From the sequence record PZ445427.1: 64,000 bases of DNA; one strand, given 5' to 3'. The DNA is from a phage. Below are positions 21,250-62,277 of this stretch, piece by piece. A program made the translations under genes and the position numbers. The first letter of the stretch is position 1. The number at the start of each line of letters is the position of its first letter. The notes under the pieces were generated by a model. The model made no database searches, had not been told where the DNA came from, and was given only the letters and a program-made list of their open reading frames with translations.

Positions 21250-21278
21250 TTGCTTTCTCCCGTATATATTGGTATAAT
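21250..21278 (+). promoter_or_regulatory. promoter cassette (TTGCTT-N17-TATAAT)
   Basis: hexamers at 21250-21255 and 21273-21278 upstream of phoH. Confidence 0.6.
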
Positions 21279-21342
21279 ATATTTGTAAGTTGATAAACAA
21301 GATCTTTTTGTTGATCCTCTGTTAGCGAAGTACACTATAGGA

Positions 21343-22104
21343 GTGTTATTTATGGGAAAAGCACGTCAAAAAAGAGAGAACCGCAATGGTTCAAGAAAGC
21401 GTGGCAACAAGTACGAGAGTAACGTAATTCAAGCAGATTTCTCTGGTGATTACGCCAATCCAGTTGCTAAATCCCTAGTTGGTAAAAACCGTGAGCAAAA
21501 ATCATATATCAATATGATCAAGAACAACACAGTGACTGTGGGTATTGGTGAACCAGGTACTGGTAAAACCTTTATTCCATCCGTTCTTGCAGCTCAGGAA
21601 CTCGTAGACATTCACTCAGATATTGAGCAAGTGATCCTCGTGCGTCCGAACGAACCTCTAGGTAAATCTCTTGGTATGCTCCCAGGTGATCTGGCAGAAA
21701 AGCTAGAGCCTTGGTTGGAACCAATAGCCGATGGCATGAAATGGGCAATCGGTGATCACGCCTACAAAGGATATGTCGAACGTCAGAAAATTAAATTCCT
21801 GGCTATCGAACATGCCCGTGGCCGAACTTTCAACAACTCCTATGTAATTGTCGATGAAGCTCAGAATATCTCCGTTGAAGCAATGATCTGTCTCTTGACT
21901 CGTGTAGGACAAGATTGTCGTTTAATTATCTGTGGGGATATAGCGCAGAAAGACATCAAGGGTGATTCAGGTCTAGCACTTCTTATGGAAGTCTATGAGA
22001 AGTATGAAAACTCTCCTTTCTCTATGATCGAACTGATCGACAACGTTCGCTCACCAGAGTCTAAAGCATTCTACGATATCTTTAAGGATATGGGGAAGGT
22101 GTAA
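21343..22104 (+). CDS. phoH: PhoH-like ATPase
   Basis: 253 aa; Walker A GEPGTGKT; Walker B IVDEAQN. Confidence 0.8.
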   Translation: MLFMGKARQKRENRNGSRKRGNKYESNVIQADFSGDYANPVAKSLVGKNREQKSYINMIKNNTVTVGIGEPGTGKTFIPSVLAAQELVDIHSDIEQVILVRPNEPLGKSLGMLPGDLAEKLEPWLEPIADGMKWAIGDHAYKGYVERQKIKFLAIEHARGRTFNNSYVIVDEAQNISVEAMICLLTRVGQDCRLIICGDIAQKDIKGDSGLALLMEVYEKYENSPFSMIELIDNVRSPESKAFYDIFKDMGKV

Positions 22105-22105
22105 T

Positions 22106-22348
22106 ATGGGAAACGTCGTACATCTGCACCGCAAAACTAAGATCCACCGTACTTCACTGAGTGCTGCTAATATGATTACACGTAAGGAAGGGGAAGAAAG
22201 TCCTAAGACTACCCTAGCGTGGAAAATTGTAGCCTCTAATCCAAATCGGCCTTTTAATTATAATGAACTTTCAACATCAGTAGATATTCTTCTGAGGGCG
22301 AATGCGAAAGCAAAAGTAATTAATCAAGCCGAAAAACTAGACTGGTAA
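22106..22348 (+). CDS. hypothetical protein (80 aa)
   Basis: ORF coupled to phoH stop. Confidence 0.4.
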   Translation: MGNVVHLHRKTKIHRTSLSAANMITRKEGEESPKTTLAWKIVASNPNRPFNYNELSTSVDILLRANAKAKVINQAEKLDW

Positions 22349-22469
22349 TATAGAAGGCCTGGGTATGAAAATACTCGGGCCTTTTCTATCAGAAAATTTT
22401 ATTTGCCAAATGACTGAGAATAAAGTAAACTATTTCCTAAATCCTGATAACTACAAAAAGGAAAGCCAA

Positions 22470-24800
22470 ATGAGCCATCGCATAGAAAAAGTAATCAAAC
22501 GTGACGGTACTGTAGAAGACTTTGCTCCTGAAAAACTCAATGGTTGGGCAGTGTATGGCTGCAAAACAGTTGATGTAAGCTGGTCATCCATCACTATGGC
22601 TGCTCAAAAAACTCTACCTAAAGGTGTTGTAGACTCCGACACCCTAATGGATGCGTTAATTAAAGCCGCTGAAGGTCTTATCAAAGATAACCCAGCATAT
22701 GATGTGCCAGCTAAGGAATTACGTCTTGCGCAGATGCGTAAACGTCTATATGACTCCTTCGAGCCTCCTTCTCTGCGTTTCTTCCACGATCATATGGTTA
22801 GTGTTGGAGCTTGGGAAGACATGAGTGCATGGATTAGCGATGATCAGTTTGATGCTCTGAATCAAGTTATCGATCATGATCGCGATCGTTTATTCACCAG
22901 TGGTGGACTGAAACAGTTCTTCGACAAGTATTCCCGTCGTAATATTGCAACTGGTGAAATTTATGAAACCCCGCAGTTTGCCTACATGGGCATGGCAATG
23001 GCGATGTTATCTCAACCTAACTGGACAATCCTAGATGCAATCGACCTCTACAATGCAATGTCGCTCCACAAAATCAACGTTCCTACTCCACCTCTCGTGG
23101 GTCTTAGGAGCAGCGACCGCGGTTTTGCTTCTTGTTGTCTTGTTGATAGTACTGATACCCTCGATTCAATCGACACAGCCGAGCATATCGTCTTCAAAAT
23201 GGTCGCAGCCAGAGCGGGAATCGGGTATCATCTTGAAAGCCGATCAATTGCTGATCCGGTGCGAAATGGGGCATTCCCGCATTCCGGAAAACTGCCATAT
23301 TATCGACACATTGACCGTTCAGTAAAAGCTAACACTCAGCAAACCCGTGGCGGTTCTGCTACTGTGTCTTATCCATACTTCGATCCTGAAATCATTCAGT
23401 TGATGCAGGTTAAGCAGCAACGTGCTACAGACGAGAATAAAATCGATAAGATGGATTATTCTCTGAGCTTTAACAACCTTCTGTTAAAACGTTACCTGAA
23501 AAACGAAGATATTACGCTAATGTCCTACTTCTACGCACCAGAAGTTCATGAAGCGTTTTATGGTGAAGATGAGGCTAAGTTTGAAGAAATCTACGTGGCA
23601 GCGGAGAAACGTGTGGCATCTCTTACAAAGACCGACCACGAAGGAAAAACAATTCCAGCAGCTCCTAGAATCTCTGCAAAAGAAATCCTAGATACTTGGT
23701 TACGTATCCGTATGGAAACAGGGCGTATGTATGCTCATCACATTGGTGAATCTAACCGTCATGGTAACTTCCTTGACCCGATTCGTATGACCAACCTTTG
23801 TGTTGAAATTACTCAGCCAACCCGTCCATTCCATCACATTACGGAACTGTATAAAACCCAAGATCAGTTAGACGATATGCGTCCAGAAGATATTGGTGAA
23901 GTATCTCTGTGTAACTTAGGTGGTGTTGTACTAGGCCGCATGGAATCTCTGGCTGAATGGGAGAAAACTTGCTACATCCTTCTGAAATTCGTTGATACAA
24001 TCATCGAGATTCAGGATTACCCATTCCCAACTATGGAATACACGGCTAAGAAACGTCGAAACGTTGGTATTGGCCTGATGAACGCAGCAGGTGCAATGGC
24101 AGCAGAAGGTTTGGCTTACGAAGGTGTTGAAGCTCGTAACTGGATTCACCGTGAAGCTGAAAAACTGTCTTACTTCCTGCACAAAGCATCTGTACGTCTG
24201 GCTAAAGAACAAGGTGCATGTGACTGGTTTAATCGTACTAAGCCATCCAAAGGAACTCTGGTAATCGACACGTACAAGAAAACTGTTGATGAACTGGTAA
24301 CCGTAGGTCTAGAAATGGATTGGGAATCTCTGCGTGCAGATATCCTGAAATACGGTATGCGTAACTCTGTTCTGACTGCTCAGATGCCGGGTGAAAGTTC
24401 CTCTGTACTGCTAGGTGTTACTAACTCTATTGAACCACCTCGTAAGATTGTATCTATCAAGGGTAGTGCAGTGAATAAAGTAATTGCAATTGCTCCAGGT
24501 GCAACCGATTGGGATACATTAATGAGCTATAAACTGGCTTATGATGTAGATCGTATCGAGTGGATCAAATGGGTAGCAACCATGCAGAAATTTTTCAGTC
24601 AGTCTATCAGTACGAATATGTACTATGACTACACCAAGTTTGAGAATGAAATCATTCCTGGTCCAGTAGTAGTTCGTGATTTCATGACTGCTGTTAAGTA
24701 CGGTTGGAAAACTTGGTACTACGCTAACTTCAACACTGAAAATGGTGGTGGAGCTGGTGAAGAAGCAGCAGGTTGTGCATCCGGTGGTTGTAACCTATAA
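22470..24800 (+). CDS. nrdA: ribonucleoside-diphosphate reductase alpha subunit (class Ia)
   Basis: ATP-cone KRDGTVEDF at chosen start; catalytic-site region EVSLCNLGG; ORF extends to 22365 but upstream part looks like leader. Confidence 0.85.
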   Translation: MSHRIEKVIKRDGTVEDFAPEKLNGWAVYGCKTVDVSWSSITMAAQKTLPKGVVDSDTLMDALIKAAEGLIKDNPAYDVPAKELRLAQMRKRLYDSFEPPSLRFFHDHMVSVGAWEDMSAWISDDQFDALNQVIDHDRDRLFTSGGLKQFFDKYSRRNIATGEIYETPQFAYMGMAMAMLSQPNWTILDAIDLYNAMSLHKINVPTPPLVGLRSSDRGFASCCLVDSTDTLDSIDTAEHIVFKMVAARAGIGYHLESRSIADPVRNGAFPHSGKLPYYRHIDRSVKANTQQTRGGSATVSYPYFDPEIIQLMQVKQQRATDENKIDKMDYSLSFNNLLLKRYLKNEDITLMSYFYAPEVHEAFYGEDEAKFEEIYVAAEKRVASLTKTDHEGKTIPAAPRISAKEILDTWLRIRMETGRMYAHHIGESNRHGNFLDPIRMTNLCVEITQPTRPFHHITELYKTQDQLDDMRPEDIGEVSLCNLGGVVLGRMESLAEWEKTCYILLKFVDTIIEIQDYPFPTMEYTAKKRRNVGIGLMNAAGAMAAEGLAYEGVEARNWIHREAEKLSYFLHKASVRLAKEQGACDWFNRTKPSKGTLVIDTYKKTVDELVTVGLEMDWESLRADILKYGMRNSVLTAQMPGESSSVLLGVTNSIEPPRKIVSIKGSAVNKVIAIAPGATDWDTLMSYKLAYDVDRIEWIKWVATMQKFFSQSISTNMYYDYTKFENEIIPGPVVVRDFMTAVKYGWKTWYYANFNTENGGGAGEEAAGCASGGCNL

Positions 24801-24836: not shown

Positions 24837-24846
24837 GAAATTTTAC

Positions 24847-24875
24847 TTGCTAATCGCTACCAGATTTGCTATAAT
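24847..24875 (+). promoter_or_regulatory. promoter cassette (TTGCTA-N17-TATAAT)
   Basis: upstream of nrdB. Confidence 0.6.
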
Positions 24876-24906
24876 ATTCCTGAAATAGTGAGAAAGAGGA
24901 AAATCA

Positions 24907-26582: not shown

Positions 26583-27433
26583 GGCAATATATTGAAACTG
26601 GAAAACGTATTCTAGAAGAGGGTGTATGGGTAACGAATCCTAGAACAGGGGTTCGTTGCCTAACTATTATTGATGCAGACTTTACCTTTAACGTAGGAGC
26701 AGGAGAACTGCCGCTAGTAACTACTCGTAAAGCATTTGCTAAACAAGCAATAATGGAAATGATCGGATATCTCCGTGGGTACGACTCAGCAGCACAATTC
26801 CGCGCTATTGGTGTTAATACATGGAATGCTAATGCAAATGAAAATATTGCCTGGCTAGGTAATCCATTCCGTAAAGGCGAGGATGATATGGGACGAGTCT
26901 ATGGTGTTCAAGGACGTCATTGGACTAATTCTGATGGTATGGTATTTGATCAGTTAGCCAAAGTCTATCATAATTTGAAAAGAGGGATTGACGATCGTGG
27001 AGAAATTTTAACTTTTTGGAACCCTGGGGAATTTCGTAAAGGATGCCTACGTCCGTGTATGCATACCCATCAATTCTCTATTTTAGGTGATACACTATAC
27101 CTAAACTCTTTCCAGAGGTCTAATGATTTCTTGCTGGGCCAAGTATTTAATATGGTGCAATGTTATGCACTTCTAGCTATTATGGCACAGATTACAGGTC
27201 TTAAGCCAGGTATTGCTCGTCAAAAGATTATCAATCTTCATATCTATGAAGATCAGTATAATGTTCTGATGGAGCACAAGCAATTCGATCGTAAACCTTT
27301 TGCATCTCCTACTTTAGAAATCAATCCAAATATCCAAACTTTGGATGATGTATTAACGTGGGTAAATAAGGATGATTTTACTGTTCGTGGCTATGAACAC
27401 CATCCTGCTATTGCATACCCATTCACAGTCTAA
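26579..27433 (+). CDS. thyA: thymidylate synthase
   Basis: 284 aa; ThyA-like blocks incl. catalytic Cys region [10 protein letters not shown] and [13 protein letters not shown]. Confidence 0.9.
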
Positions 27434-27440
27434 TTCAAAT

Positions 27441-27463
27441 AGCCCTTCGGGGCTATTATATTT
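27441..27463 (+). terminator. UUCG-tetraloop hairpin / terminator
   Basis: AGCCC-TTCG-GGGCT followed by ATTATATTT. Confidence 0.5.
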
Positions 27464-27472
27464 AAATTTCAT

Positions 27473-27501
27473 TTGCTTACTGAGTGAAATTCAAATATAA
27501 T
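27473..27501 (+). promoter_or_regulatory. promoter cassette (TTGCTT-N17-TATAAT)
   Basis: overlaps the 5' end of ORF 27484; real start likely ATG 27526. Confidence 0.6.
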
Positions 27502-27525
27502 ATATTTTATAAATTGGAGACACTT

Positions 27526-28525: not shown

Positions 28526-28545
28526 TAAATAATTTAAAAATTCAC

Positions 28546-28574
28546 TTGCTTAAAGCCCTCGAATTTAGTATAAT
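28546..28574 (+). promoter_or_regulatory. promoter cassette (TTGCTT-N17-TATAAT)
   Basis: followed by leader with GAGGAGGG SD and ATG 28602. Confidence 0.6.
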
Positions 28575-28601
28575 ATTCGTATTGAAAGTGAGGAGGGCTT
28601 T

Positions 28602-28880: not shown

Positions 28881-28896
28881 TTTTTAAAAAATTCAT

Positions 28897-28925
28897 TTGC
28901 TAAACGCTTCAAAATTTCGTATAAT
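28897..28925 (+). promoter_or_regulatory. promoter cassette (TTGCTA-N17-TATAAT)
   Basis: upstream of 28964 gene. Confidence 0.6.
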
Positions 28926-28963
28926 ATATCTCATAAATTGATCAACAAAAAGGAAAACAAATA

Positions 28964-30040: not shown

Positions 30041-30742
30041 ATGAAATTCAAGCCCTTTGGTATGCTGGACATTGAATCTCTAGGTACTCCAGGAAATTGC
30101 GGTACTACTCATATTGCAATGCCTTCTTTCGCTTTTGTAGCGATGCACGGAATTGATAAAGATCCTGATCTGGTATTCGTTACTCTAGACGTTCAAGATC
30201 AGCTTAATGCGGGTGCTAAGGTAACTGCCTCTACTATTGCATTCTGGATGGATCAAGCTAAAAACAGTCCATCTGCGCTCCATATTATGGAGGCTCTAAA
30301 TGGTCGTAATCCTAAACTGATTGCCTTCCGTGATGGTAAGCATCACTGCACTAATGACGTAGGCTCTAATTATGCTGCCTTCTCTATGGCTCAGAACATT
30401 ATGGAATTGTCTCTAGGAGATAATGCTCTGTATTACGGCAATGGCCCAGAGTTTGATATGACAATCTACTCTGCAAATACGTTCCATGCCGGAACCCATG
30501 AAGAAATAGTTCCGTGGAAATTCTGGAACTTAGGTAACGTTCGATCTTTCCGTAATCAGTGGATGCAAGCTGGTTATAGCTATAAAGATCTAGAAGCCGA
30601 AGGTGCTAGCTGGGCAAAAGCTAAAATGGAAAAGATGGACACCATTCGTTATGGAATCTATCCTGTGAAGCATGATCCAGCATTCGATGCTTTAGTTGAA
30701 AGTTATTGTGTAGCCGTCATGATCGAAAAAATCAAAATTTGA
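30041..30742 (+). CDS. hypothetical protein (233 aa)
   Basis: ORF with SD AAAGGA. Confidence 0.6.
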   Translation: MKFKPFGMLDIESLGTPGNCGTTHIAMPSFAFVAMHGIDKDPDLVFVTLDVQDQLNAGAKVTASTIAFWMDQAKNSPSALHIMEALNGRNPKLIAFRDGKHHCTNDVGSNYAAFSMAQNIMELSLGDNALYYGNGPEFDMTIYSANTFHAGTHEEIVPWKFWNLGNVRSFRNQWMQAGYSYKDLEAEGASWAKAKMEKMDTIRYGIYPVKHDPAFDALVESYCVAVMIEKIKI

Positions 30743-30743
30743 T

Positions 30744-30772
30744 TTGCTTTCAGCTCCAAAATTCTGTATAAT
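30744..30772 (+). promoter_or_regulatory. promoter cassette (TTGCTT-N17-TATAAT)
   Basis: -35 begins right after upstream stop. Confidence 0.6.
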
Positions 30773-30812
30773 ATATTCATAAATTTGAGAGAACAACAAA
30801 AGGAAAACAATT

Positions 30813-31688: not shown

Positions 31689-32072
31689 TAATTTAAAAGA
31701 CTAGTAAATCGGTAGACGAAAGCCCAAGCATCTTACCTCGCAGCAGCGGTTGAAATACGAGGTTAAATAAGACCGCTGACCATACTATAAAGTATAATCT
31801 ATTGGAGATTATGTTTATTACATCAGACATTTAATCTGACACGTAAAAACAAAAGGTCGTTGGTAGTACCAACACAACTTCAAAGATCAACGCTCAAGTA
31901 TGAAAGCTGAAAAGTTAAAAGCACTCAAACTTCTAACCTTCTAAAGCTAAAAGATGCAAAGTATTCGTTGATGATTCAAACCCTAGATCAAAGGTACATG
32001 GCTCATAAGATATGGCCTGTGGCGCCTCTAGGCTGTTTATCGGTTTACTAGTCTCTCAATTTAAAAATGTAT

Positions 32073-32101
32073 TTGCTAATTAGTTTAGTTTTCTATATAA
32101 T
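32073..32101 (+). promoter_or_regulatory. promoter cassette (TTGCTA-N17-TATAAT)
   Basis: ends a 440-nt ORF-free segment. Confidence 0.6.
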
Positions 32102-32131
32102 ATATTTTTAAATTGATGAGACGAGGCTATT

Positions 32132-32454: not shown

Positions 32455-32904
32455 ATGAAGGCAGCTTTGCTTTTAATAGCTGCCCTAACCTATAGCTTCA
32501 ATAGTCATGCGACCTACGACTCAAAGCAGATTGATTGCATTGCAAAAAATATCTACTTCGAAGCACGAGGTGAGGGCACTAAAGGAATGATCGCAGTTGC
32601 ACAGGTTACTAAAAACCGTGTTAACTCTGGTACTTTTCCTGATTCTTACTGTAAAGTAGTATATCAGTCTAACCAGTTCTCTTGGGTGGCCAAGAGACCA
32701 AAAGTTGATAAAACCGATGAGGCTTGGCAAGTTGCTAAGAATTTAGCTAGAGTGATATACTACGTTGATTTACCACAAGATCCAACACATGGAGCGTTAT
32801 ACTTCCATAGTGGTAAAGATAAACCGTACTGGACAAAGAAGTTTAAGAAAACAACGAAGATTCAAGGCCATACGTTCTACAAGCCTGTGGTTAAGAAAAC
32901 TTAA
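32455..32904 (+). CDS. SleB-like cell-wall hydrolase with signal peptide
   Basis: signal-like MKAALLLIAALTYSFNSHA; block NIYFEARGEG...AVAQVTKNRV typical of Hydrolase_2 family. Confidence 0.55.
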   Translation: MKAALLLIAALTYSFNSHATYDSKQIDCIAKNIYFEARGEGTKGMIAVAQVTKNRVNSGTFPDSYCKVVYQSNQFSWVAKRPKVDKTDEAWQVAKNLARVIYYVDLPQDPTHGALYFHSGKDKPYWTKKFKKTTKIQGHTFYKPVVKKT

Positions 32905-32912
32905 AAATTCGA

Positions 32913-32941
32913 TTGCTTAAAGCCTTAAATTTCTGTATAAT
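32913..32941 (+). promoter_or_regulatory. promoter cassette (TTGCTT-N17-TATAAT)
   Basis: followed by conserved leader and ATG 32973. Confidence 0.6.
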
Positions 32942-32972
32942 ACTTTCATAAATTAATGAGAGGAAGCGAAAT

Positions 32973-33143: not shown

Positions 33144-33586
33144 TGGAAGAGAATATTCTAAATGTTTTGCGTAGGGCTTTGCAGGAATCTAAGGTTGATG
33201 GTTCTGATAAAGAAGTAGCTAAAAGCTACCAGACCATAATCGGAGATCTTCAGCGTGTTGATAAAGACTTCATTACTTCTGAACAGTTTGTATCTTATCT
33301 AAAAGCTCAACTGAAAAGCATTAATCAGACGAAAGCTAAACTTCACGGTCAAGACCTTGATAATTATAGCTTGCAGTCTGCTCAGTATGAGTATATACTG
33401 AACAAATGGCTACAACAGTATCTGCCGCCTCAGTTATCTGATTCTGAGATTCGCAAATACTTTGCAGAATTAGTTAAGTTGAACCCTGGGATTACAAAAG
33501 GTATGCTGATGAAAGCGATTAAGGAAGAGTTTCCTGGTCGTTACGACGGTGGCATTGCTGCTCAGGTTGCTGGCGAATTTAATTAA
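33143..33586 (+). CDS. YqeY/GatB-C-terminal-domain-like protein
   Basis: 147 aa; blocks YLPPQLSDSEIRKYF and C-terminal GxxKGxLMKAIKEE...G resemble YqeY family. Confidence 0.45.
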   Translation: MEENILNVLRRALQESKVDGSDKEVAKSYQTIIGDLQRVDKDFITSEQFVSYLKAQLKSINQTKAKLHGQDLDNYSLQSAQYEYILNKWLQQYLPPQLSDSEIRKYFAELVKLNPGITKGMLMKAIKEEFPGRYDGGIAAQVAGEFN

Positions 33587-33594
33587 AAATTGAT

Positions 33595-33623
33595 TTGCTA
33601 AACGCCTCAAAATTCTGTATAAT
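33595..33623 (+). promoter_or_regulatory. promoter cassette driving an ORF-free region
   Basis: TTGCTA-N17-TATAAT at 33595-33600/33618-33623; no start codon within normal distance. Confidence 0.6.
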
Positions 33624-33629
33624 AGATTC

Positions 33630-34482
33630 ATAAATTAGAGAACAGCGAGCCGATTACGCTGAGTGAGTTTAGTGATTCCTACTAGGATAGCTATTCCACT
33701 GAATAGAGTCGGTGAGTTGGAGACTAGTAAGTACTCTGAGAGAGGCTACGAGCTAACGCTTATTGCTATTGATAGGGAACTGAAAATCTGCGGAAAACTC
33801 GGGAGCTGTCCCGAAATCTCGTAAACTCTTCTCTAGTTTATGTTAGTGGGGTGTCGAACTGACTTATGTGATAACACTGCCGTCCTAGTATAAACGGTAA
33901 TATCAAACCGTAACTGGTGGAAGATGCAGGTTCGAATCCTGCGGTCGGAAAGAATCAGATAACTCGGGCTTATACCGGATAAGCATTCGCTGCTGGAGTA
34001 CATACTATGACGGTTCAGGAGGTACGCCACCTGATCAGTATTAGGTTAGAATCGAAACAGCTAAACCACGAGGAAACCTGACGGCCTCAACCAAACTCGG
34101 AACTCGGGATCACTGCCTAGTGTGTGCCCCGTTTAACCTGAGACTAGGCATCCAGCTTCGCATCGAAAATCGGAGGTGCGATTCTAACAGACCGCGTGAA
34201 TATGAGAGTGGGAAACGCTGACATGAGAGATGTCACTAATGGTGCCCAATAGTACAGGTAATTCGCGATAATTCCTGTTGAGCGGCAGCAGTAGGCTGGG
34301 AGTCATGACCTAAGCCTAACCGAGTTCTTCACATACGGAGAACATAACCACAAAGTCACCCTGACTTAAACTGGAAGATATTGTCTGACGGAAGGGCTGC
34401 AGAGCTTAATCTGAGGGGGCTGACCCTACCTACCGTCGGGTATCTTTAAGAGCTTTTATAAGAGTTCTTAAAAATACCTAAA
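33630..34482 (+). ncRNA. candidate large structured non-coding RNA (about 850 nt), class unknown
   Basis: no plus-strand ORF >=60 aa; balanced composition unlike AT-rich spacers; hairpins (e.g. GCCTAGT...ACTAGGC); three AACTCGGG repeats; internal partial tRNA copy. Confidence 0.45.
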
Positions 34483-37547: not shown

Positions 37548-37576
37548 ACTTTACATTACCCCAGCGAAAATGTCAA
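37548..37576 (-). promoter_or_regulatory. sigma70-like promoter for the 37495..36058 operon (minus strand)
   Basis: minus-strand TTGACA-N17-TAAAGT, then AGGAGGTG SD and ATG 37495. Confidence 0.5.
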
Positions 37577-37692
37577 GGGGTCTTTAAAAATTGCCCCCGG
37601 ATTTTTAGTGGGGTAACAATTTCTGGACTTCACCACTCACCTGCTACCCTTAAGTGCCCTGCGATTTTCCACTAAAAAGTTTAAAAATTCGA

Positions 37693-37721
37693 TTGCTTGA
37701 ATGCTAAATTCTCTGTATAAT
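37693..37721 (+). promoter_or_regulatory. promoter cassette (TTGCTT-N17-TATAAT)
   Basis: leader AAATTTGAGAGAGGAATCAAAT then ATG 37752. Confidence 0.6.
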
Positions 37722-37751
37722 ATATTTATAAATTTGAGAGAGGAATCAAAT

Positions 37752-39520: not shown

Positions 39521-39533
39521 CAGAAATTTTCAC

Positions 39534-39562
39534 TTGCTTTATATAGAAAATTTCTGTATAAT
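39534..39562 (+). promoter_or_regulatory. promoter cassette (TTGCTT-N17-TATAAT)
   Basis: upstream of 39593 gene. Confidence 0.6.
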
Positions 39563-39592
39563 ATATTTATAAATTTGAGAGAGGAATCAAAC

Positions 39593-39889
39593 ATGAAACG
39601 CATTGTACTTGCATTGACTCTAGTATCTACTTCTGTATTTGCTGTTCCACAACAGGAACTTTGTCAAGTTCAGGTTTGTAATAAGTTAGAACGATTTACT
39701 TTGGATATTTGGTCACACATTAAAGATAATATGGGTGAACAGTGTTTTGATATTGTTCTGCCAAAAGAGCAGGCTGTTCCTGGTGCTGTTCTTAGCTCAG
39801 AGTCACGTTGGTGGCAGGGTTCTTCTATCAACCCAACTAAGAAGTCAGTGACACGTATCAAACAGGTATATCAGTGCAATGTTCAGTAA
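39593..39889 (+). CDS. secreted small protein with signal peptide (98 aa)
   Basis: MKRIVLALTLVSTSVFA signal-like N-terminus; 4 Cys. Confidence 0.5.
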   Translation: MKRIVLALTLVSTSVFAVPQQELCQVQVCNKLERFTLDIWSHIKDNMGEQCFDIVLPKEQAVPGAVLSSESRWWQGSSINPTKKSVTRIKQVYQCNVQ

Positions 39890-39897
39890 AATTTCAC

Positions 39898-39926
39898 TTG
39901 CTTAATGCCGAAATTTTCTGTATAAT
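39898..39926 (+). promoter_or_regulatory. promoter cassette driving tRNA operon
   Basis: TTGCTT-N17-TATAAT; first tRNA starts about 15 nt after predicted TSS. Confidence 0.6.
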
Positions 39927-39940
39927 ATATTCATAAATTT

Positions 39941-40034
39941 GGAAGATTAACCCTAAAGGTAAGGGAGCTGTTTGCTAAACAGCCAGTAACTGTGGAGACA
40001 CGGTGTGCCAGTTCGAATCTGGCATCTTCCTCCA
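39941..40034 (+). tRNA. tRNA-Ser (anticodon GCU), class II
   Basis: acceptor GGAAGAT/ATCTTCC; anticodon stem GCTGT/ACAGC loop TTGCTAA; long variable arm; T-arm GCCAG-TTCGAAT-CTGGC; CCA encoded. Confidence 0.75.
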
Positions 40035-41103: not shown

Positions 41104-41133
41104 CTCCTCCAAGCAGAAATTTTAAAAATGTAC

Positions 41134-41163
41134 TTGCTTTTTACTTAAGATTTCTGCTATAAT
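41134..41163 (+). promoter_or_regulatory. promoter cassette (TTGCTT-N18-TATAAT)
   Basis: upstream of 41194 gene. Confidence 0.55.
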
Positions 41164-41193
41164 AGTTATATAAATTGATGAAGGAGTTAACGA

Positions 41194-41469: not shown

Positions 41470-41505
41470 CTGATATAGCACTGAGCAAGTTCTTTAAAAT
41501 TTGAC

Positions 41506-41534
41506 TTGCTCAGTCCTTCAAAACTTGATATAAT
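41506..41534 (+). promoter_or_regulatory. promoter cassette (TTGCTC-N17-TATAAT) driving tRNA-Tyr
   Basis: hexamers 41506-41511 / 41529-41534. Confidence 0.55.
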
Positions 41535-41599
41535 ATTTATCTAATTTGGAAACATATTTAAAAGTGTTTAAATGAGAATTTTTGAATACTTCTAAATAT

Positions 41600-42829: not shown

Positions 42830-42843
42830 ACTGAAAAATGTAG

Positions 42844-42872
42844 TTGCTTAAATCCTTAAAGTTCTGTATAAT
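42844..42872 (+). promoter_or_regulatory. promoter cassette (TTGCTT-N17-TATAAT)
   Basis: upstream of 42901 gene. Confidence 0.6.
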
Positions 42873-42900
42873 TATTATATAAATTGAACTGGAGAACTAG

Positions 42901-44001: not shown

Positions 44002-44249
44002 AATTTAGGTTTCTGCTTCCTAGAGAACTGACTCCTAGATAAACAAGGCGATGAGTTTCCGGCCGGTTCTAGTCGCTGAAAATCCTCCCGACCAGGTAGG
44101 TGTAAGTAAACGAAAGTTTACTTATTAAGTAAGTCCGACACATCGGCGGGTGTGTTCTAGTACTTAAAGAAGGTCTCGCAAACTTTCTCGCTAGCATGAG
44201 TTGATAGCTCGGTGACTTACCTAATAAGTAAATTTATTAAAAAATGTAG

Positions 44250-44278
44250 TTGCTATTTAGCTTAATTCTCTGTATAAT
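44250..44278 (+). promoter_or_regulatory. promoter cassette driving tRNA-Pro/CAU operon
   Basis: TTGCTA-N17-TATAAT. Confidence 0.6.
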
Positions 44279-44310
44279 ATATTTTATAAAGTGAGTTAAC
44301 AAAGAATATT

Positions 44311-45299: not shown

Positions 45300-45659
45300 T
45301 TGCAAATGCAATTATCAAGCAAGGTTCAAGGCTATTTCGGGCATGTAACAATGGAGTTCGCTATCTCTAAAGGTTGGGACTTCGAACAAGATCTAGCTGA
45401 ATTCTACAAAGATATTGATCTGAATGTACCGTACATAGGACTCTCTACTGGTCAAGAGATCACAGAAGGCGATGTGTTCAAGGCAAGTCAAGGTGAGGTA
45501 ACACCTAGTTTTGCCGAGTTCTGGTTAGGTATTACTTTGAAAGAAGATGCACCGGATGGTGGTGTGGTTATGCAGAGTATGCACTCTGGAAGCTCTGACT
45601 ACCTTTTCGTTAGTGACGTTAAGGAAATACAAGAAATCTGCAAAAATGTACTTGCTTGA
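45300..45659 (+). CDS. hypothetical protein (119 aa)
   Basis: ORF. Confidence 0.5.
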   Translation: MQMQLSSKVQGYFGHVTMEFAISKGWDFEQDLAEFYKDIDLNVPYIGLSTGQEITEGDVFKASQGEVTPSFAEFWLGITLKEDAPDGGVVMQSMHSGSSDYLFVSDVKEIQEICKNVLA

Positions 45660-45680
45660 TGCTTAATTTCTTGTTATAAT
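45652..45680 (+). promoter_or_regulatory. promoter cassette followed by about 245-nt leader
   Basis: TTGCTT-N17-TATAAT; next ATG only at 45924. Confidence 0.55.
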
Positions 45681-45923
45681 ATTTATATAAATTGATGGGG
45701 AGAAATCCTCATCAAAGTTCACTAAGGTATTAGCTCGACCTAGGACTGGCTGCCAAAAAGCACGATCCCTACGACTTGGGAGAAGTTCTAGATTAGTCCA
45801 CTAGATTCAGTGGCAACTGAATAGTGTATCGGGTTTGTGAAGAGCGGTTATCCTCTACTGGCTAATGTCTGAGGGTAATACGCACACCGAGCTAATAGCC
45901 TTAGTAAACTAGAAGGAATATCT

Positions 45924-46357: not shown

Positions 46358-46376
46358 AACAAATTAAGGAAATAAT

Positions 46377-48883: not shown

Positions 48884-48898
48884 AATTTAAAAATTCAT

Positions 48899-48927
48899 TT
48901 GCCTTCTCTCTTATTTCTTGTTATAAT
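48899..48927 (+). promoter_or_regulatory. promoter cassette (TTGCCT-N17-TATAAT)
   Basis: followed by AATTAATGAGAGGGAAACC leader and ATG 48958. Confidence 0.55.
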
Positions 48928-48957
48928 ATTTATATAAATTAATGAGAGGGAAACCAA

Positions 48958-49779: not shown

Positions 49780-50148
49780 ATGAAAGCATATCAAAGTCTT
49801 AAGTCTGGCGTAATTAACATTGTTCATAACAATCAGATCATTCAACTATATTCTAAAGATGGTGAACTTAAACAGAAAGTTCTAGTCGAAGATCTAGAAG
49901 GTATCACACCTCACTTTGACCCTGAGGCCTTTCGCATTGTAGATGTGGAAGTGGTTCCTCAAGTCGAGGGTGGTCAGCACCTAAATGTCAATGTGTTAAG
50001 CCGTGATCAGCTTTTGGATGCACAGAAACATCCTGAAAAATATCCTCAGTTGACCATCCGTGTCTCTGGCTATGCTGTTCGATTTAACGCATTGACGCGT
50101 GAACAACAGAACGACGTTATTAGTCGTACATTTACTCAGGCGATATAA
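49780..50148 (+). CDS. autonomous glycyl-radical cofactor (GrcA/YfiD-like)
   Basis: 122 aa; C-terminal glycyl-radical signature [25 protein letters not shown]. Confidence 0.7.
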
Positions 50149-51191: not shown

Positions 51192-51689
51192 ATGGAAACC
51201 TGGAAAGACATAACAGGTTTTGAGGGTAAATACCAGATATCTAATAAGGGGAATGTCTCTAGTTATTTATCTGGTAAAATTCTCAAACCCCAAGTAAATA
51301 GACAAGGGTATCTTGTCATCAACCTATATTATGAAGTAGGTAAAGCTAGAAAATTTAGGATACACAGACTTGTAGCTGAGCACTTTATACCTAATCCAGA
51401 TAATAAACCCTTCGTTAATCATCTGGATGGTGATAAGTCAAATAATGACGAGGATAACCTAGAATGGAGCACCTCGGAAGAGAATAATAGACATGCCCGT
51501 GAAAATGGTTTAGCTAATTGGGCGAAAGGGGAACAGCATGGTAGGTGTAAACTATCTGATGCAGATATCTTTTGGATAAGAAGTCATTATCAGCCAAGAA
51601 ACCGAGAATTTGGTCAAGCTGCTTTAGCTAGGATGTTCGGTGTAAGTCAACCTCACATATCGTATATAATTAACGGGCATAAAAGGTAA
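51192..51689 (+). CDS. HNH homing endonuclease (NUMOD4-HNH type)
   Basis: N-terminal FEGKYQISNKGNV; HNH region HRLVAEHF...NHLDGDKSNNDEDNLEW. Confidence 0.7.
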   Translation: METWKDITGFEGKYQISNKGNVSSYLSGKILKPQVNRQGYLVINLYYEVGKARKFRIHRLVAEHFIPNPDNKPFVNHLDGDKSNNDEDNLEWSTSEENNRHARENGLANWAKGEQHGRCKLSDADIFWIRSHYQPRNREFGQAALARMFGVSQPHISYIINGHKR

Positions 51690-51705
51690 AAATGAAATAA
51701 TTCAT

Positions 51706-51734
51706 TTGCTAAAGAACCTCTTTATTGATATAAT
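51706..51734 (+). promoter_or_regulatory. promoter cassette (TTGCTA-N17-TATAAT)
   Basis: leader AATTGATAGAGAGGGCTTTGAA then ATG 51766. Confidence 0.6.
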
Positions 51735-51765
51735 ATTTATATAAATTGATAGAGAGGGCTTTGAA

Positions 51766-53398: not shown

Positions 53399-53746
53399 AT
53401 GAGCTTTATTTTATTTATTGTAGCAGCATGGTTTATTATTGGTTTAGGCTATGCTATTGCAGTTATTCGTCATCTGGATGAATATTCTGCTGAATGGTTT
53501 ATTAAGTACCTACGTTTAGACGATCAAGAACACGAGTTCGACAGTGCTGAGGAAAGACAGGCTGTCCAGTCAATGACTCCCAAAGAATGCTTGCTTTACA
53601 TGCGTGTAATTGGTTTCTTTGGACTGTTGGTAGCGGGGCCGCTAGGTCTTACTATTGCTCCCTACAAAGAAGTTGTTGACGACATTAAACTATGGAGAAC
53701 CGCTGGATCGCTACGTCGTGCTAGAGAATTAAGTAAACAAGAGTGA
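53399..53746 (+). CDS. membrane protein (115 aa)
   Basis: start at ATG after GGAGATATC; two TM helices. Confidence 0.5.
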   Translation: MSFILFIVAAWFIIGLGYAIAVIRHLDEYSAEWFIKYLRLDDQEHEFDSAEERQAVQSMTPKECLLYMRVIGFFGLLVAGPLGLTIAPYKEVVDDIKLWRTAGSLRRARELSKQE

Positions 53747-53817: not shown

Positions 53818-53831
53818 TAATAAAATTTCAG

Positions 53832-53860
53832 TTGCTCAGATGCCACAAGTATTGTATAAT
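53832..53860 (+). promoter_or_regulatory. promoter cassette (TTGCTC-N17-TATAAT)
   Basis: upstream of 53892 gene. Confidence 0.6.
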
Positions 53861-53891
53861 ATGTTTATAGATTGAGGCAAAAGGATAATTT

Positions 53892-55280: not shown

Positions 55281-56032
55281 TGTCAGTATTAGTCGGTTTA
55301 CATGGTGAGGCTGGTGCGGGAAAAGATACCGTTGCAGAATTAATGATTGACTGGTGTAATGACACGTTCCCAACGTGTTTATCCCGTCGTTATAGTTTTG
55401 CTAAACCCGTTTACGAACTTGCATCCGTAATCCTCGGGGTAACCCCAGAGTTTCTGGGAGAGCGCAGGGGAAAAGAGATTGACCAATGGTTTACAGTCAC
55501 ACAATCTCAATTGGAGCGAGCTAGAGACGTATGGTTTAAGTATGGTATCGATAAGTTTGAGGACTTCTCGTACGTTTGGCCGATATTTGAAGGAAAATAC
55601 CTTGATCCTCAGCAGTTAATTGGGCAAGCTGATGATGCGCTGTATAGCGTATTTATCTCCCCAAGAAAAATGCTACAGCTTGTAGGTACTGAGTTAGGAA
55701 GGCAGCTGGTGCATGAACGCATTTGGCTCATAATTCTGGAGCAATCCATCGATAAAGACGACCCAGACGTCGCAATCGTTACCGATGTGCGTTTCCCCAA
55801 TGAGGGAGAGCTAATCATGGAAACCAATACTCTAGATATGGATTCCATGCTTATTAAGGTTGAATCTGGTATTACTAATAAGTATCGCATCGAGACAGAT
55901 CATCCGTCTGAAAGCGGTATTCCTGAAAAATACATTTCTCATAAATTTGAGAATACCTTCAACGGACTTGATGCACTTCGTACCGATGTGTACCACTTCT
56001 GTGACTTAGAGCTAGAACCACTAGTTGGATAA
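55280..56032 (+). CDS. deoxynucleoside monophosphate kinase-like P-loop kinase
   Basis: 250 aa; P-loop GLHGEAGAGKDT (compare T4 gp1 GxxRSGKDT). Confidence 0.6.
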   Translation: MSVLVGLHGEAGAGKDTVAELMIDWCNDTFPTCLSRRYSFAKPVYELASVILGVTPEFLGERRGKEIDQWFTVTQSQLERARDVWFKYGIDKFEDFSYVWPIFEGKYLDPQQLIGQADDALYSVFISPRKMLQLVGTELGRQLVHERIWLIILEQSIDKDDPDVAIVTDVRFPNEGELIMETNTLDMDSMLIKVESGITNKYRIETDHPSESGIPEKYISHKFENTFNGLDALRTDVYHFCDLELEPLVG

Positions 56033-58359: not shown

Positions 58360-58372
58360 TATAAAAAAGTAG

Positions 58373-58401
58373 TTGACTTTCCGCTGAAATTTTTATATAA
58401 T
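58373..58401 (+). promoter_or_regulatory. promoter cassette (TTGACT-N17-TATAAT)
   Basis: upstream of 58435 gene. Confidence 0.6.
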
Positions 58402-58434
58402 ATTTGTATAAATTGAATCAGAGGAGTTTCACAA

Positions 58435-58845: not shown

Positions 58846-59128
58846 ATTAGTATATCTATTAAAGGGATCTACCTGCAATCCGTGCAAAATGTTCGAGCCT
58901 GTATTTGATAAAGTAGTACAGGACTACAGTCTAGAAGTTCATAAAGAGACTGATAACACAGAACTTATGCAGAAATTTGGCGTTCGTCAGGTTCCTGTAG
59001 TAGTTTTAGCAGATCGTCTCCCGAATGGTCGTGTGGAAGCCAACCACATTCTGATTGGTCGTCAGCTTCGTAAAGAAACTATGCACGATGCAATCAAAAA
59101 CTTCCTGGAAGATAATCCAGAAGATTAA
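58838..59128 (+). CDS. thioredoxin-fold protein
   Basis: 96 aa; CxxC active-site-like CNPC near N-terminus. Confidence 0.5.
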   Translation: MSKLVYLLKGSTCNPCKMFEPVFDKVVQDYSLEVHKETDNTELMQKFGVRQVPVVVLADRLPNGRVEANHILIGRQLRKETMHDAIKNFLEDNPED

Positions 59129-59136: not shown

Positions 59137-59168
59137 ACCCAGATCTTAGCTGATCTGGGTTTTTTATT
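59137..59168 (+). terminator. rho-independent terminator
   Basis: ACCCAGATC-TTAGCT-GATCTGGGT followed by TTTTTATT. Confidence 0.65.
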
Positions 59169-59170
59169 AC

Positions 59171-59199
59171 TTGCTTTCTGCTAAAAATTTTGATATAAT
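59171..59199 (+). promoter_or_regulatory. promoter cassette (TTGCTT-N17-TATAAT)
   Basis: leader AAATTGATGAGAGGAGTATCACA then TTG start 59231. Confidence 0.6.
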
Positions 59200-59230
59200 A
59201 TATGTATAAATTGATGAGAGGAGTATCACA

Positions 59231-61638: not shown

Positions 61639-61740
61639 TTTTGATGGCATGGCTCGTGAGATATTTATAGCAATAGGTATAGTAGTTCTTATCTCTTTCT
61701 TTACGGGCCTAGGCTTAGGCCTTTTATTTTAAAACTTCAT

Positions 61741-61769
61741 TTGCTAAAATGCTTAGTTTTCTGTATAAT
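61741..61769 (+). promoter_or_regulatory. promoter cassette (TTGCTA-N17-TATAAT)
   Basis: upstream of 61800 gene. Confidence 0.6.
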
Positions 61770-61799
61770 TACTTTATAAATTGATGAGAAGGAATCAAA

Positions 61800-62231
61800 A
61801 TGCAAAAGATTGATAAAGCACTCTTAATCGCAACAGCAGATAAGTTTGAGCAAGTTAAAGCTACTTTTAAGGCAGTCTTTCAGTCCTATGTTCAAGACAA
61901 ATCGAACCCGATTTCTGAGCGTTTGATGATGTGGGAATGTTTTGCTTGCAATGCTCTGCTAATTTCCGATTATAAGGGAGAAGTATCTGAGGAATTGCAT
62001 GAGATCTTTATTAATGAGGATACTCCACGCTATCAGTTAGTGAACTTCCAAGATCTAGCTGAGCAAGTTATTCCTGATGATCTTTGGGACAAGTATTACG
62101 GTGATCCTGAAGAAGATGGTATGGAACCTGAGAAGTGCATCGAACTGATCTGTAAGGATCACCCTGAAATTGCTGAGAAATTTGAGCTAGTATTTGCTTC
62201 TGAGTTCTCAGGTTTCGTTAACGATTGGTAA
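61800..62231 (+). CDS. hypothetical protein (143 aa)
   Basis: ORF after promoter. Confidence 0.5.
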   Translation: MQKIDKALLIATADKFEQVKATFKAVFQSYVQDKSNPISERLMMWECFACNALLISDYKGEVSEELHEIFINEDTPRYQLVNFQDLAEQVIPDDLWDKYYGDPEEDGMEPEKCIELICKDHPEIAEKFELVFASEFSGFVNDW

Positions 62232-62248
62232 GTAAATAAAAAATTCAG

Positions 62249-62277
62249 TTGCTTTTAGCTTTAAAATTCTGTATAAT
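62249..62277 (+). promoter_or_regulatory. promoter cassette (TTGCTT-N17-TATAAT)
   Basis: leader ATAAATTAATGAGAGAGGAAATTCTA then ATG 62310. Confidence 0.6.

Follow-up and report, generated by a model that had tools for sequence, protein, structure and literature searches.

Thirty-one copies of an extended sigma-70 promoter, conserved into the transcript, in a T5-like phage

Why should a phage repeat one promoter some thirty times and hold its sequence constant well beyond the start of the transcript? The question arises in the 64,000-nucleotide stretch of record PZ445427.1 analysed here (the window), which belongs to a T5-like, Salmonella-infecting phage that shares about 98% identity with EH2 and Stitch and has aligned DNA blocks 76–93% identical to T5. 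An earlier note on this DNA had described a promoter-plus-leader cassette of the T5 early type, and had suggested that the shared leader is a post-transcriptional input and a substrate for recombination. The repeated unit is an extended sigma-70 promoter, present in 31 copies, 24 on the plus and 7 on the minus strand (Table 1).

Anatomy of the unit and its T5 counterparts

Each unit opens with an A-tract; TTGCTW and TATAAT follow, separated by a 17-bp spacer, and after an ATATT-type discriminator come ATAAATT from +1 and a purine-rich run. The alignment-derived consensus, AAAA(A/T)TT(C/T)A-n-TTGCT(T/A)-N17-TATAAT-ATATT(T/C)-ATAAATT(G/T)(A/G)nGAGAGG, reproduces the form proposed in the earlier note; the numbering of its start site is taken over from T5 N25. 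There are 25 exact matches to TTGCTW-N16-18-TATAAT, 20 on the plus and 5 on the minus strand, where shuffled sequence would yield 0.15, and TATAAT with discriminator and ATAAATT is found 22 times at up to 2 mismatches, against 0.06 expected. A weight-matrix scan allowing a variable spacer gave 31 credible copies at 23–47 bits, the top score in 40 shuffled strands being 14.8; its 24 plus and 7 minus copies agree with the counts of at least 24 and at least 6 claimed before. The interval first given for the family, 21250-62277, holds for the plus-strand copies, while those on the minus strand are located at 4531-19083. Position-specific conservation spans -45 to +18, about 63 nt rather than the 55 or so originally stated, and the 3' part thought to be shared, GATGAGAGG, is far more variable than ATAAATT, the 19-mer being matched at 8 sites (up to 3 mismatches). 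The initial transcribed sequence (ITS) is poorly matched at 24870, 28569, 41529 and 15699, though these are conserved as promoters.

Table 1. Promoter cassettes in the window, named in the text by the position of the -10; starts are numbered from +1
Span (-45 to +18)	Strand	-10	T5 orthologue	Downstream unit	Remarks
4502..4564	-	4531	unnamed promoter 70987-71061	DNA polymerase gene, start +56	long leader; ITS variant GTAAGTT
8515..8577	-	8544	P-K28a	ligB-like ORF, start +22	
9881..9943	-	9910	promoter 65284-65358	66-aa ORF without T5 counterpart, then ligA	terminator hairpin adjoins upstream side
11098..11160	-	11127	P-N26	D3-like ORF, start +53	long leader
12130..12192	-	12159	P-N25	D2-like 234-aa ORF	ITS ATAAATTTGAGAGAGGAGTT, shared with T5 N25
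15670..15732	-	15699	promoter 58999-59073	replication-origin-binding protein gene	long leader; -35 TTGCAG
19031..19093	-	19060	promoter 55708-55782	93-aa ORF, start +23	terminator hairpin adjoins -35
21240..21302	+	21273	promoter 53638-53712	phoH-like ORF, start +68	ITS variant GTAAGTT
24837..24899	+	24870	promoter 50061-50135	nrdB, start +26	ITS weakly matched; T5 and PECP14 carry an HNH gene insertion behind the -10
27463..27525	+	27496		start +19	7-nt discriminator; terminator upstream
28536..28598	+	28569	promoter 46337-46411	start +22	divergent ITS ATTGAAAG
28887..28949	+	28920	P-H207	start +33	own SD downstream
30734..30796	+	30767	promoter 44393-44467	start +35	ITS ATAAATTTGAGAGAAC retained; working SD downstream of it
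32063..32125	+	32096	promoter 43067-43141	start +25	
32903..32965	+	32936	P-D/E33	start +26	
33585..33647	+	33618	P16-17	non-coding RNAX homologue + tRNA-Arg	
37683..37745	+	37716	P15a	NadR-like NMNAT + PnuC, start +25	
39524..39586	+	39557	none		
39888..39950	+	39921	P15b	tRNA-Ser from +9	
41125..41187	+	41158	P15c	start +25	18-bp spacer
41496..41558	+	41529	P14a	tRNA-Tyr at +59	TTGCTC; ITS CTAATTTGG
42834..42896	+	42867		start +23	leader same as T5 P14b
44240..44302	+	44273	P13a	tRNA-Pro/Met operon, tRNA at +26	
45642..45704	+	45675	P13b	non-coding stretch (T5 RNA2H region), then tRNA-Ala	
48889..48951	+	48922	P11	start +25	TTGCCT
51696..51758	+	51729	promoter 26722-26796	start +26	HNH/NUMOD4 gene insertion directly upstream in window phage
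53822..53884	+	53855	promoter 24443-24517	start +26	TTGCTC; ITS ATAGATTG
58363..58425	+	58396	promoter 19368-19442	start +28	consensus-type -35 TTGACT
59161..59223	+	59194	promoter 18550-18624	TTG start at +26	A-tract replaced by terminator T-run
61731..61793	+	61764	P-F30	start +25	terminator upstream
62239..62301	+	62272	promoter 16245-16319	start +27	

Judged by sequence, the units are orthologues of the named T5 early promoters (P-N25, P-N26, P-K28a, P-H207, P-D/E33, P11-P16-17). The T5 record (GenBank AY543070) carries 75-nt “promoter” features at the syntenic sites, many with Bujard names, which bears out the assignment to the T5 early type; copy 12159 is nearly identical to P-N25 at every base. 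The family is genuine, but as the very strong early promoters of T5 and its relatives it is well known, and T5 copies carry annotation; the examined records of the window phage's relatives have no promoter annotation. T5 early promoters have the same architecture, with the same TTGCTT -35, A-tract, ATATT discriminator (common to all known T5 early promoters; PMC7472727) and ATAAATT...GAGAGG, and they occupy the same places with respect to orthologous genes, to tRNAs and to RNAX. Compared with T5, the window phage has one extra cassette, 39557, and some of its downstream genes differ (the NadR/PnuC module, small ORFs, homing endonucleases). The ORF-free region pointed out at 33595 does have its cassette, and is a homologue of the T5 stable RNA RNAX. 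In AKFV33, also T5-like, Niu et al. (2012) reported 32 promoters of the form TTGCTw / 17-18 bp / TATAATA, with AAAAATT at -43 and TAAATT at +1 in their logos, the same observation as the consensus of the earlier note (PMC3326045). There the +1 block was termed “AT-richness” (PMC3326045); the separation of an ITS core from the Shine-Dalgarno (SD), and the tests of selection and class specificity, are those of the present analysis.

Two parts of the transcribed sequence

Divergence per site, measured on 27 orthologous window/T5 cassette pairs, is 0.000 in the -10, 0.031 in the -35, 0.051 at +1 to +8 and 0.062 in the A-tract, rising to 0.099 in the discriminator, 0.159 in the spacer, 0.167 at +9 to +18 and 0.21–0.31 in the flanks. 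Positions +1 to +8 evolve about as slowly as the -35 hexamer, and the “leader” is a composite of this part and of +9 to +18, which is rich in purines throughout the family. In the 11 units that have no start codon close by (tRNA, stable-RNA and long-leader units), ATAAATT (+1 to +7) keeps 5.9 of 7 matches, against 2.1 by chance. The same units have 7.7 purines out of 10 at +9 to +18 (null 5.3) and lose the SD-specific G's, which are present only in coding units. The claim that conservation reaches through the leader into the SD stands as far as the transcript is concerned, and for 20 of the 31 copies the conserved part ends in an SD: there GAGAGG/GGAG precedes, by 7–10 nt, a start codon located between +19 and +28, and an SD occurs within +9 to +18 only where a start codon follows in that range.

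Such placement, with the G's confined to coding units, means that +9 to +18 does bear a translational signal. Coding-unit leaders are in addition less structured than random 40-mers (-2.96 versus -5.41 kcal/mol, p=4e-5), those of the 20 SD copies being AU-rich and significantly unstructured. One could accordingly imagine the whole conserved leader as a common 5' RNA element, either an S1 A/U-rich translational enhancer with SD or an RNase E/RNase entry site setting early mRNA stability; we think this somewhat unlikely. ATAAATT is conserved equally before untranslated tRNAs and stable RNAs, whose leader is lost in processing, and in cassette 39921 the tRNA begins at +9, so that the ITS core (+1 to +7 with +8) is the entire 8-nt 5' leader. 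Cassettes 30767 and 28920 retain the GAGAG/purine stretch though the working SD is 15 nt downstream, and in the published in vitro work it is RNA synthesis that the ITS affects. With ATAAATT so conserved in untranslated units and the N25 ITS acting on escape, the shared post-transcriptional input suggested by leader identity is not needed.

Polymerase binding and promoter escape

The units are most probably (about 0.85) sigma-70 promoters belonging to the early class (class II) of a T5-like phage, each forming one extended module for RNA-polymerase recognition and launch. The A-tract at -45 to -37 would serve the alpha C-terminal domain as a proximal UP element, and TTGCTW, the 17-bp AT-rich spacer and the perfect TATAAT would together let the polymerase bind extremely fast and tightly. 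Transcription would start at the A of ATAAATT, and the transcript would stay rich in purines up to about +18. Such tight binding would make escape the rate-limiting step, and the conserved transcribed sequence would be tuned for quick departure of the polymerase with little abortive cycling. In the 20 units directly serving a protein gene, the purine-rich stretch would double as the SD of an unstructured leader of about 25 nt, and one unit of about 70 nt could provide both maximal transcription and efficient translation. Anatomy and statistics, T5 orthology, position-wise purifying selection, early-class restriction and persistence in distant relatives come from the phage sequences compared here, while start site and escape mechanism come from the N25 literature.

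The conserved +1 to +18 of the window cassettes belongs to the N25 ITS family (the “downstream sequence region”; Kammerer et al. 1986; Hsu laboratory 2003-2025), in which the experiments concern one promoter only and the mechanism is transferred from it to the window copies. N25 output is limited by the rate of escape (PMC12464699; PMC5961368), and changing +3 to +20 lowered full-length RNA about 10-fold (Kammerer 1986, after the summaries in PMC12464699 and PMC5961368). An ITS with many purines in the non-template strand shifts the complex toward the post-translocated state, with less backtracking and abortive release (PMC12464699; PMC5961368), and the ITS of N25 has been described as evolved to optimal fitness for escape (PMC12464699). 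The published effect of the N25 transcribed region is a transcriptional rather than a post-transcriptional input, and we infer that the remaining 30 copies behave like N25.

The rule that purine-rich means fast escape accounts for +9 to +18. ATAAATT, the most constrained transcribed part, has yet only 4 purines in 7, for which the rule has no obvious explanation, and it is followed by a T-G step, which makes escape slower in the context of other promoters (PMC5961368). This constraint beyond the purine rule leaves room for more, and +1 to +8 may have an additional sequence-specific function.

A phage factor could supply it. Over the whole T5 genome, 34 of 35 cassette matches lie in the early region and the remaining one before llp; the pre-early terminal repeats have zero matches, and the same architecture is found in Providencia PR1 and Vibrio Ceto. 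ATATT and ATAAATT might be mainly a class-specific site at which a phage protein, for example gpT5.026 (RNAP-binding) or D5 (DNA-binding), acts in early shut-off or late handover, in which case conservation would reflect temporal regulation and not escape kinetics. Class restriction and retention in these relatives would fit, as would a constraint on +1 to +8 that equals that of the -35 and exceeds the need of a composition rule, and a perfect 12-bp palindrome (ATTTAT/ATAAAT, -6 to +6) in five copies. The discriminator is the main difference between early and late promoters, and with gpT5.026 RNAP binds less firmly to the -5/+2 segment of N25, whose -12 to +2 reads TATAATAGATTCAT (PMC7472727). 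N25 nevertheless reaches its full strength in E. coli that is not infected, and also in vitro, where host RNAP is sufficient. The ITS therefore has a function that needs no such factor, and we consider it unlikely that a factor site is its main role.

Recombination and the wider family

Finally, the cassettes resemble the PeSL (promoter-early stem-loop) of Arbiol et al. 2010, reportedly mobile regulatory cassettes of T4-type phages, in being a reiterated early-promoter unit that borders small variable gene modules, and in that a terminator stem-loop adjoins the promoter in 7 of the 31. By analogy they could be portable repeats for homologous recombination, shuffling gene modules among T5-like phages. 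Of 72 homology-block ends against T5, 15 fall within -65 to +45 of a cassette, where a uniform null predicts 3.9 (p=6e-6), and the ends cluster at +8 to +27 and -46 to -60. Cassettes 37716 and 39557 flank the NadR/PnuC module, which has no T5 counterpart, and share 41 nt (-16 to the ATG) bar one T/C difference, with differing upstream halves. A selected element between diverged flanks would, however, yield block ends at cassette edges anyway, several of the indels next to cassettes are homing-endonuclease genes, which are mobile in their own right, and the ORF that follows 39557 has no relation to T5.076. Measured against other gene junctions the enrichment disappears: 13 of 31 junctions with a cassette are hit and 40 of 106 without (Fisher p=0.41), and breakpoint density is lower at cassette junctions (3.8 versus 6.9 per kb). 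Since breakpoints are not enriched over other junctions, the window cassettes, unlike PeSL, give no evidence of shuffling; the module-shuffling role once proposed for them does not hold up, and we judge it quite improbable.

For the promoters as recognition and launch modules, the roughly 30-fold reiteration of the ITS, its position-wise conservation between phages and its retention before non-coding units are established here in silico only. What is added to the family known from T5 is that the cassette is restricted to early-class units in T5, and that it is retained in Providencia and Vibrio relatives.

Promoter units and their T5 counterparts

The pattern TTGCTW-N16-18-TATAAT has 25 exact matches in the window (20 plus, 5 minus), where shuffled sequences give 0.15. 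A position matrix built from the 24 exact copies with a 17-bp spacer, scanned with a variable spacer, finds 31 credible copies of the cassette (the ~63-nt unit, from -45 to +18, named here by the window coordinate of its -10) at 23-47 bits, the best shuffle reaching 14.8; a weak match at 22426 was dropped for lack of a -10 hexamer. Twenty-four copies lie on the plus strand (-10 from 21273 to 62272) and seven on the minus strand (4531, 8544, 9910, 11127, 12159, 15699, and 19060). The scan agrees with the earlier note in copy number (at least 24 plus and at least 6 minus) and in consensus, including a -35 of TTGCTT/TTGCTA, while the span of 21250-62277 proposed there takes in plus-strand copies only. 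Replication genes in the leftward block (0-21 kb) are served by the minus-strand copies outside that span, and transcription diverges at ~21.0-21.25 kb, where the sign of the GC skew flips. Throughout the window (1-64000) GC skew tracks transcription direction, being negative over 1-22 kb and positive from 24 kb, with a dip at 36-38 kb at the site of a short leftward block.

The -10 is TATAAT in 31/31 copies, of which 29 have a 17-bp and two an 18-bp spacer, and the -35 is exactly TTGCT[AT] in 25, the rest having TTGCTC, TTGCCT/TTGCCG, TTGCAG, and one TTGACT. Matrix information extends well past both hexamers: upstream to an A-tract, AAAA(A/T)TT at -45 to -39 (0.8-1.5 bits per column), which is a UP-element-like block near -43; weakly into the spacer (GC at -26/-25, A at -21, T at -16, TG at -14/-13); and downstream to an ATATT-type discriminator, ATATT(T/C), with the consensus A-T-A/T-T-T-Y at -6 to -1. 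The transcribed part begins with ATAAATT(G/T) at +1 and continues as a purine-rich run to ~+18. The composite TATAAT-ATWTWY-ATAAATT occurs 22 times in the window, against 0.06 expected.

The window comes from a T5-like Salmonella phage and contains 29 tRNA genes. Over 30-45 kb it is 98% identical to phage EH2 and 96.7% to Stitch (Demerecviridae, Epseptimavirus), and the window is collinear, at 76-93% identity, with T5 coordinates ~75.5-14.9 kb. In the T5 record AY543070, syntenic sites are annotated with 75-nt "promoter" features, many with Bujard laboratory names, and 28 of the 31 copies lie within T5-collinear blocks and adjoin an annotated T5 promoter; the records of the close relatives examined hold no promoter annotation. 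Copy 12159, ...AAAAATTTATTTGCTTTTAGGAAAATTTTTCTGTATAATAGATTCATAAATTTGAGAGAGGAGTTTAAATATG, is P-N25 bar two or three differences. The pQE "T5 promoter" expression vectors are built on P-N25, which is also a standard model for promoter escape. Its initial transcribed sequence (ITS), which we take to be ATAAATTTGAGAGAGGAGTT, agrees with AY543070 63093-63112, and the conserved transcribed region of the cassettes is homologous to it. Each unit is a T5-type early promoter with a built-in ITS, joined in two-thirds of cases by a ribosome binding site (RBS). For the T5-like phage AKFV33, 32 promoters with TTGCTw, a 17-18 bp spacer, and TATAATA were described in 2012, in logos that also show AAAAATT at -43 and TAAATT at +1 (PMC3326045); the observation is therefore established knowledge, confirmed here.

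Named T5 promoters with their window copies, and open reading frames beside cassettes
Feature	Window position	Strand	Gene served or description
P-K28a	8544	-	ligB
P-N26	11127	-	D3
P-N25	12159	-	D2
P-H207	28920	+	171-aa ORF (T5.089-like)
P-D/E33	32936	+	56-aa ORF (T5.082-like)
P16-17	33618	+	stable RNA "RNAX"
P15a, P15b, P15c	37716, 39921, 41158	+	tRNA region
P14a, P14b	41529, 42867	+	tRNA region
P13a, P13b	44273, 45675	+	tRNA region
P11	48922	+	97-aa ORF (T5.058-like)
P-F30	61764	+	143-aa ORF (T5.033-like)
NadR-like nicotinamide-nucleotide adenylyltransferase (CTP_transf_like + AAA_28) and PnuC NMN transporter	37752-39486	+	
163-aa ORF, T5orf172/MUG113 domain (GIY-YIG-like)	41705-42196	+	between tRNA-Tyr and tRNA-Glu
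165-aa ORF, NUMOD4 + HNH_3	51192-51689	+	homing endonuclease type

Terminators, breakpoints, and mobile neighbours

A terminator-like G+C-rich hairpin with a T-run lies upstream in 7/31 cassettes (9910, 15699, 19060, 24870, 27496, 59194, and 61764; null 5%), ending 1-10 nt from the -35 in six and 39 nt from it at 15699. At its closest, the T-run overlaps the A-tract or, in 3-4 copies, replaces it. In many cases a unit is an insulated junction of terminator and promoter, as in the T5 annotation. For a second promoter motif, TTGACATTTTCNCC, the window yields just two real copies, statistically at chance level. A second promoter type, with a TTGACA -35 followed by TTTTCGCC and without the ATAAATT box, is found on the minus strand at 8647-8660 and 37563-37576; these are the orthologues of T5 P-K28b and P12, and the one at 37.5 kb drives a short leftward gene block (35.7-37.5 kb) inside the rightward region.

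The place at 33595 that the earlier note called ORF-free does have a cassette (33618), and the region itself is a homologue of RNAX, a 719-nt stable RNA of T5, followed by tRNA-Arg. The homologue (33630-34480, between the cassette and tRNA-Arg) contains strongly conserved tRNA-like blocks, e.g., a GGTTCGAATCC T-arm near 33925-33960, that are called by neither ARAGORN nor Rfam; an Rfam search of 33.5-50 kb for an RNA family in leader or ORF-free regions returned tRNAs and sub-threshold chance matches only. Compared with T5, ~190 extra nt follow directly after ITS position +12 of the RNAX unit in the window and in EH2.

The cassettes had also been proposed as a recombination substrate for module shuffling. 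We compared the window by blastn with T5, EH2, Stitch, 100268_sal2, and PECP14, chained the matching blocks, and recorded gaps of at least 60 nt. Against T5, 15 of 72 block ends fall within -65 to +45 of a cassette, clustering at both edges of the conserved span, where a uniform null expects 3.9 (p = 6e-6). Gene junctions of every kind, though, tend to be where mosaic borders fall. Under a gene-junction null this apparent enrichment, and with it the idea of cassettes as hot-spots, is gone: breakpoints occur at 13/31 cassette junctions and at 40/106 others (Fisher p = 0.41), with, if anything, fewer ends per kb at cassette junctions (3.8) than at the others (6.9). A recombination role is unsupported here and looks unlikely, and the breakpoint excess over the gene-border background that would be expected of PeSL-like recombination cassettes is not seen in the window.

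Several cassette-adjacent indels are homing-endonuclease-type genes. T5, EH2, and Stitch lack the NUMOD4 + HNH_3 ORF, whose insertion ends 46-48 nt 5′ of the +1 of cassette 51729, and the segment around the GIY-YIG-like ORF is unlike all five relatives compared. In T5 (AY543070 49536-50060) and PECP14, the ~0.5-kb HNH gene hegH interrupts the nrdB promoter between its -10 and +1 and thereby captures it; the insertion is missing from the window (24877-24882). The NadR-like/PnuC NAD-salvage module, missing from T5, sits in place of T5.076 between cassettes 37716 and 39557, which have 41 nt in common from -16 to the ATG (one T/C difference; window 37700-37754 and 39541-39583) and unrelated upstream halves. 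Module insertion with cassette duplication was rejected, the ORF after 39557 being no T5.076 homologue. The shared half may stem from a half-cassette copy or gene conversion, and the pair is the one suggestive case for recombination, otherwise an anecdote.

Composition of the transcribed leader and promoter escape

Sorting the copies by downstream feature separates those with a start codon nearby from those followed by a tRNA, a stable RNA, or a long leader. The coding class (20/31) has its start codon at +19 to +28 behind a GAGAGG- or GGAG-type sequence, a Shine-Dalgarno 5-10 nt before the start of a real ORF. For these, the conserved part does reach the Shine-Dalgarno, as the earlier note had it; for the remaining 11 (tRNA: 39921, 41529, and 44273; stable RNA: 33618 and 45675; long leader: 4531, 11127, 15699, 21273, 28920, and 30767) it does not. 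ATAAATT at +1 to +7 is present in 18-19 of the 20 coding units and is kept at a mean of 5.9/7 positions in the non-coding class (random sites 2.1, maximum 3.55). In the latter, +9 to +18 has 7.7/10 purines versus 5.3 at random sites, with A in place of the G's typical of a Shine-Dalgarno (+13 and +15 to +17). Behind cassette 39921, tRNA-Ser (GCU) starts at +9 (window 39933-39941), so that the primary transcript would carry no 5′ leader beyond the 8-nt core (AUAAAUUU) for RNase P to cut off. Coding-unit leaders form less structure than do random 40-mers (-2.96 vs. -5.41 kcal/mol, p = 4e-5). The comparison of the two classes shows the leader to be composite. Its core, +1 to +8, is independent of coding; +9 to +18 is purine-biased in general; and an RBS is overlaid on this latter stretch only where needed. 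The attribution to T5 early promoters made at first reading stands; the post-transcriptional input suggested alongside it is less well supported, ATAAATT being retained before units that are not translated.

Divergence from T5 over 27 orthologous cassette pairs, in differences per site, rises from 0.000 in the -10 hexamer through 0.031 in the -35 hexamer, 0.051 in +1 to +8, 0.062 in the A-tract, and 0.099 in the discriminator to 0.159 in the spacer, 0.167 in +9 to +18, 0.207 in the upstream flank, and 0.310 in +19 to +40. The ITS core is thus constrained like recognised polymerase contacts. The DNA-polymerase and phoH promoters have a variant start box, GTAAGTT (window 4519, minus, and 21285, plus; counterparts at T5 71030 and 53669 and at L009 11900). 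T5 shares the variant at both promoters, and Providencia phage PR1 has it at the polymerase promoter; this pattern suggests that individual promoters are tuned, a G start replacing the A start.

In N25, TATAATAGATTCAT covers -12 to +2 and places +1 at the A of cATAAATT (PMC7472727), so the "leader" is transcribed from its first base; a start downstream of the conserved leader, which would have told against the earlier note, does not apply to N25. Use by host σ70 RNA polymerase early in infection, with an A start seven bases past TATAAT, was shown for N25 and, by primer extension, for 15 T5 promoters (PMC7472727). By analogy, the window copies are predicted to be used by the same enzyme from the same position. 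In a summary of four decades of work on it, N25, its -35 written TTGctt, combines a UP element with an AT-rich spacer, and its rate-limiting step is promoter escape; when +3 to +20 was replaced ("antiDSR," Kammerer et al., 1986), full-length RNA fell about ten-fold and abortive products multiplied (PMC12464699). When the non-template ITS is rich in purines, the post-translocated state is favoured and backtracking suppressed, and the native N25 ITS is said to have evolved toward optimal escape (PMC12464699). In vivo, the ITS effect exceeds ten-fold and correlates with purine content (PMC5961368). The best-supported role for the conserved transcribed part, by analogy with N25, would be transcriptional, letting the polymerase escape rapidly from a promoter that it binds very tightly, with signals for translation added where needed. 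Purifying selection on +1 to +8 and the purine bias at +9 to +18, irrespective of coding, are in silico backing for an escape-tuned ITS.

Class specificity and what the core means for T5-like phages

Of the 35 sites that a matrix scan finds in the whole T5 genome (121.75 kb), 34 fall within the early region (10.2-81.7 kb); the pre-early terminal repeats have none, and the remaining site (110392) precedes llp, a gene set among late genes. Decker et al. reportedly found in 1994 that llp is expressed early. Among the annotated T5 promoters examined, the discriminator and ITS signature is absent from the pre-early P-H22, from two unnamed terminal-repeat features, and from one promoter at the late-region border (81735). 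The same architecture precedes early genes of two distant relatives, Providencia phage PR1 and Vibrio phage Ceto (subfamily Ermolyevavirinae), whose DNA polymerases are 66% and 57% identical, with A-tract, TTGC, 17-bp spacer, TATAAT, AT-rich discriminator, and ATAAATTG or ATAAAGTTGAG.

ATATT is the discriminator of all T5 early promoters known to date, is said to set them apart from the late ones, and possibly lies behind the differing effect of gpT5.026, an RNA polymerase-binding T5 protein, on early and late transcription (PMC7472727). A bolder, rather unlikely reading is that ATATT plus ATAAATT has a role beyond escape, as a Demerecviridae-wide early-class tag read by a factor like gpT5.026 or the DNA-binding protein D5 that times early shut-off. 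It would explain why the exact heptamer, and not mere composition, is kept from Salmonella to Vibrio phages, and why the signature is absent from pre-early promoters and from all late-region matches but llp. An operator-like dyad about +1, ATTTAT|ATAAAT (-6 to +6), of the kind a dimeric regulator might bind, is present in five copies and is marginal against a column-shuffle null: the mean longest palindrome is 7.16 versus 6.54 in column shuffles (p = 0.035), and eight copies have a palindrome of at least 10 bp versus 5.6 (p = 0.15). Fast escape remains our preferred reading; the strict, class-specific retention of exact ATAAATT perhaps leaves some slight room for phage-factor recognition in the early-to-late switch.

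In itself the finding matters little, because a textbook promoter family has been re-discovered. The added value is comparative and modest: +1 to +8 evolves about as slowly as the -35 hexamer, is kept before tRNAs and stable RNAs, is restricted to the early class, and is present in Vibrio and Providencia relatives, which together speaks for the ITS being an integral, selected part of these promoters in nature and not an oddity of N25. The mechanism of the T5 early-to-late switch is stated to be still unknown (PMC7472727), and the ATAAATT core is a defined sequence to mutate in asking how T5-like phages make that switch.
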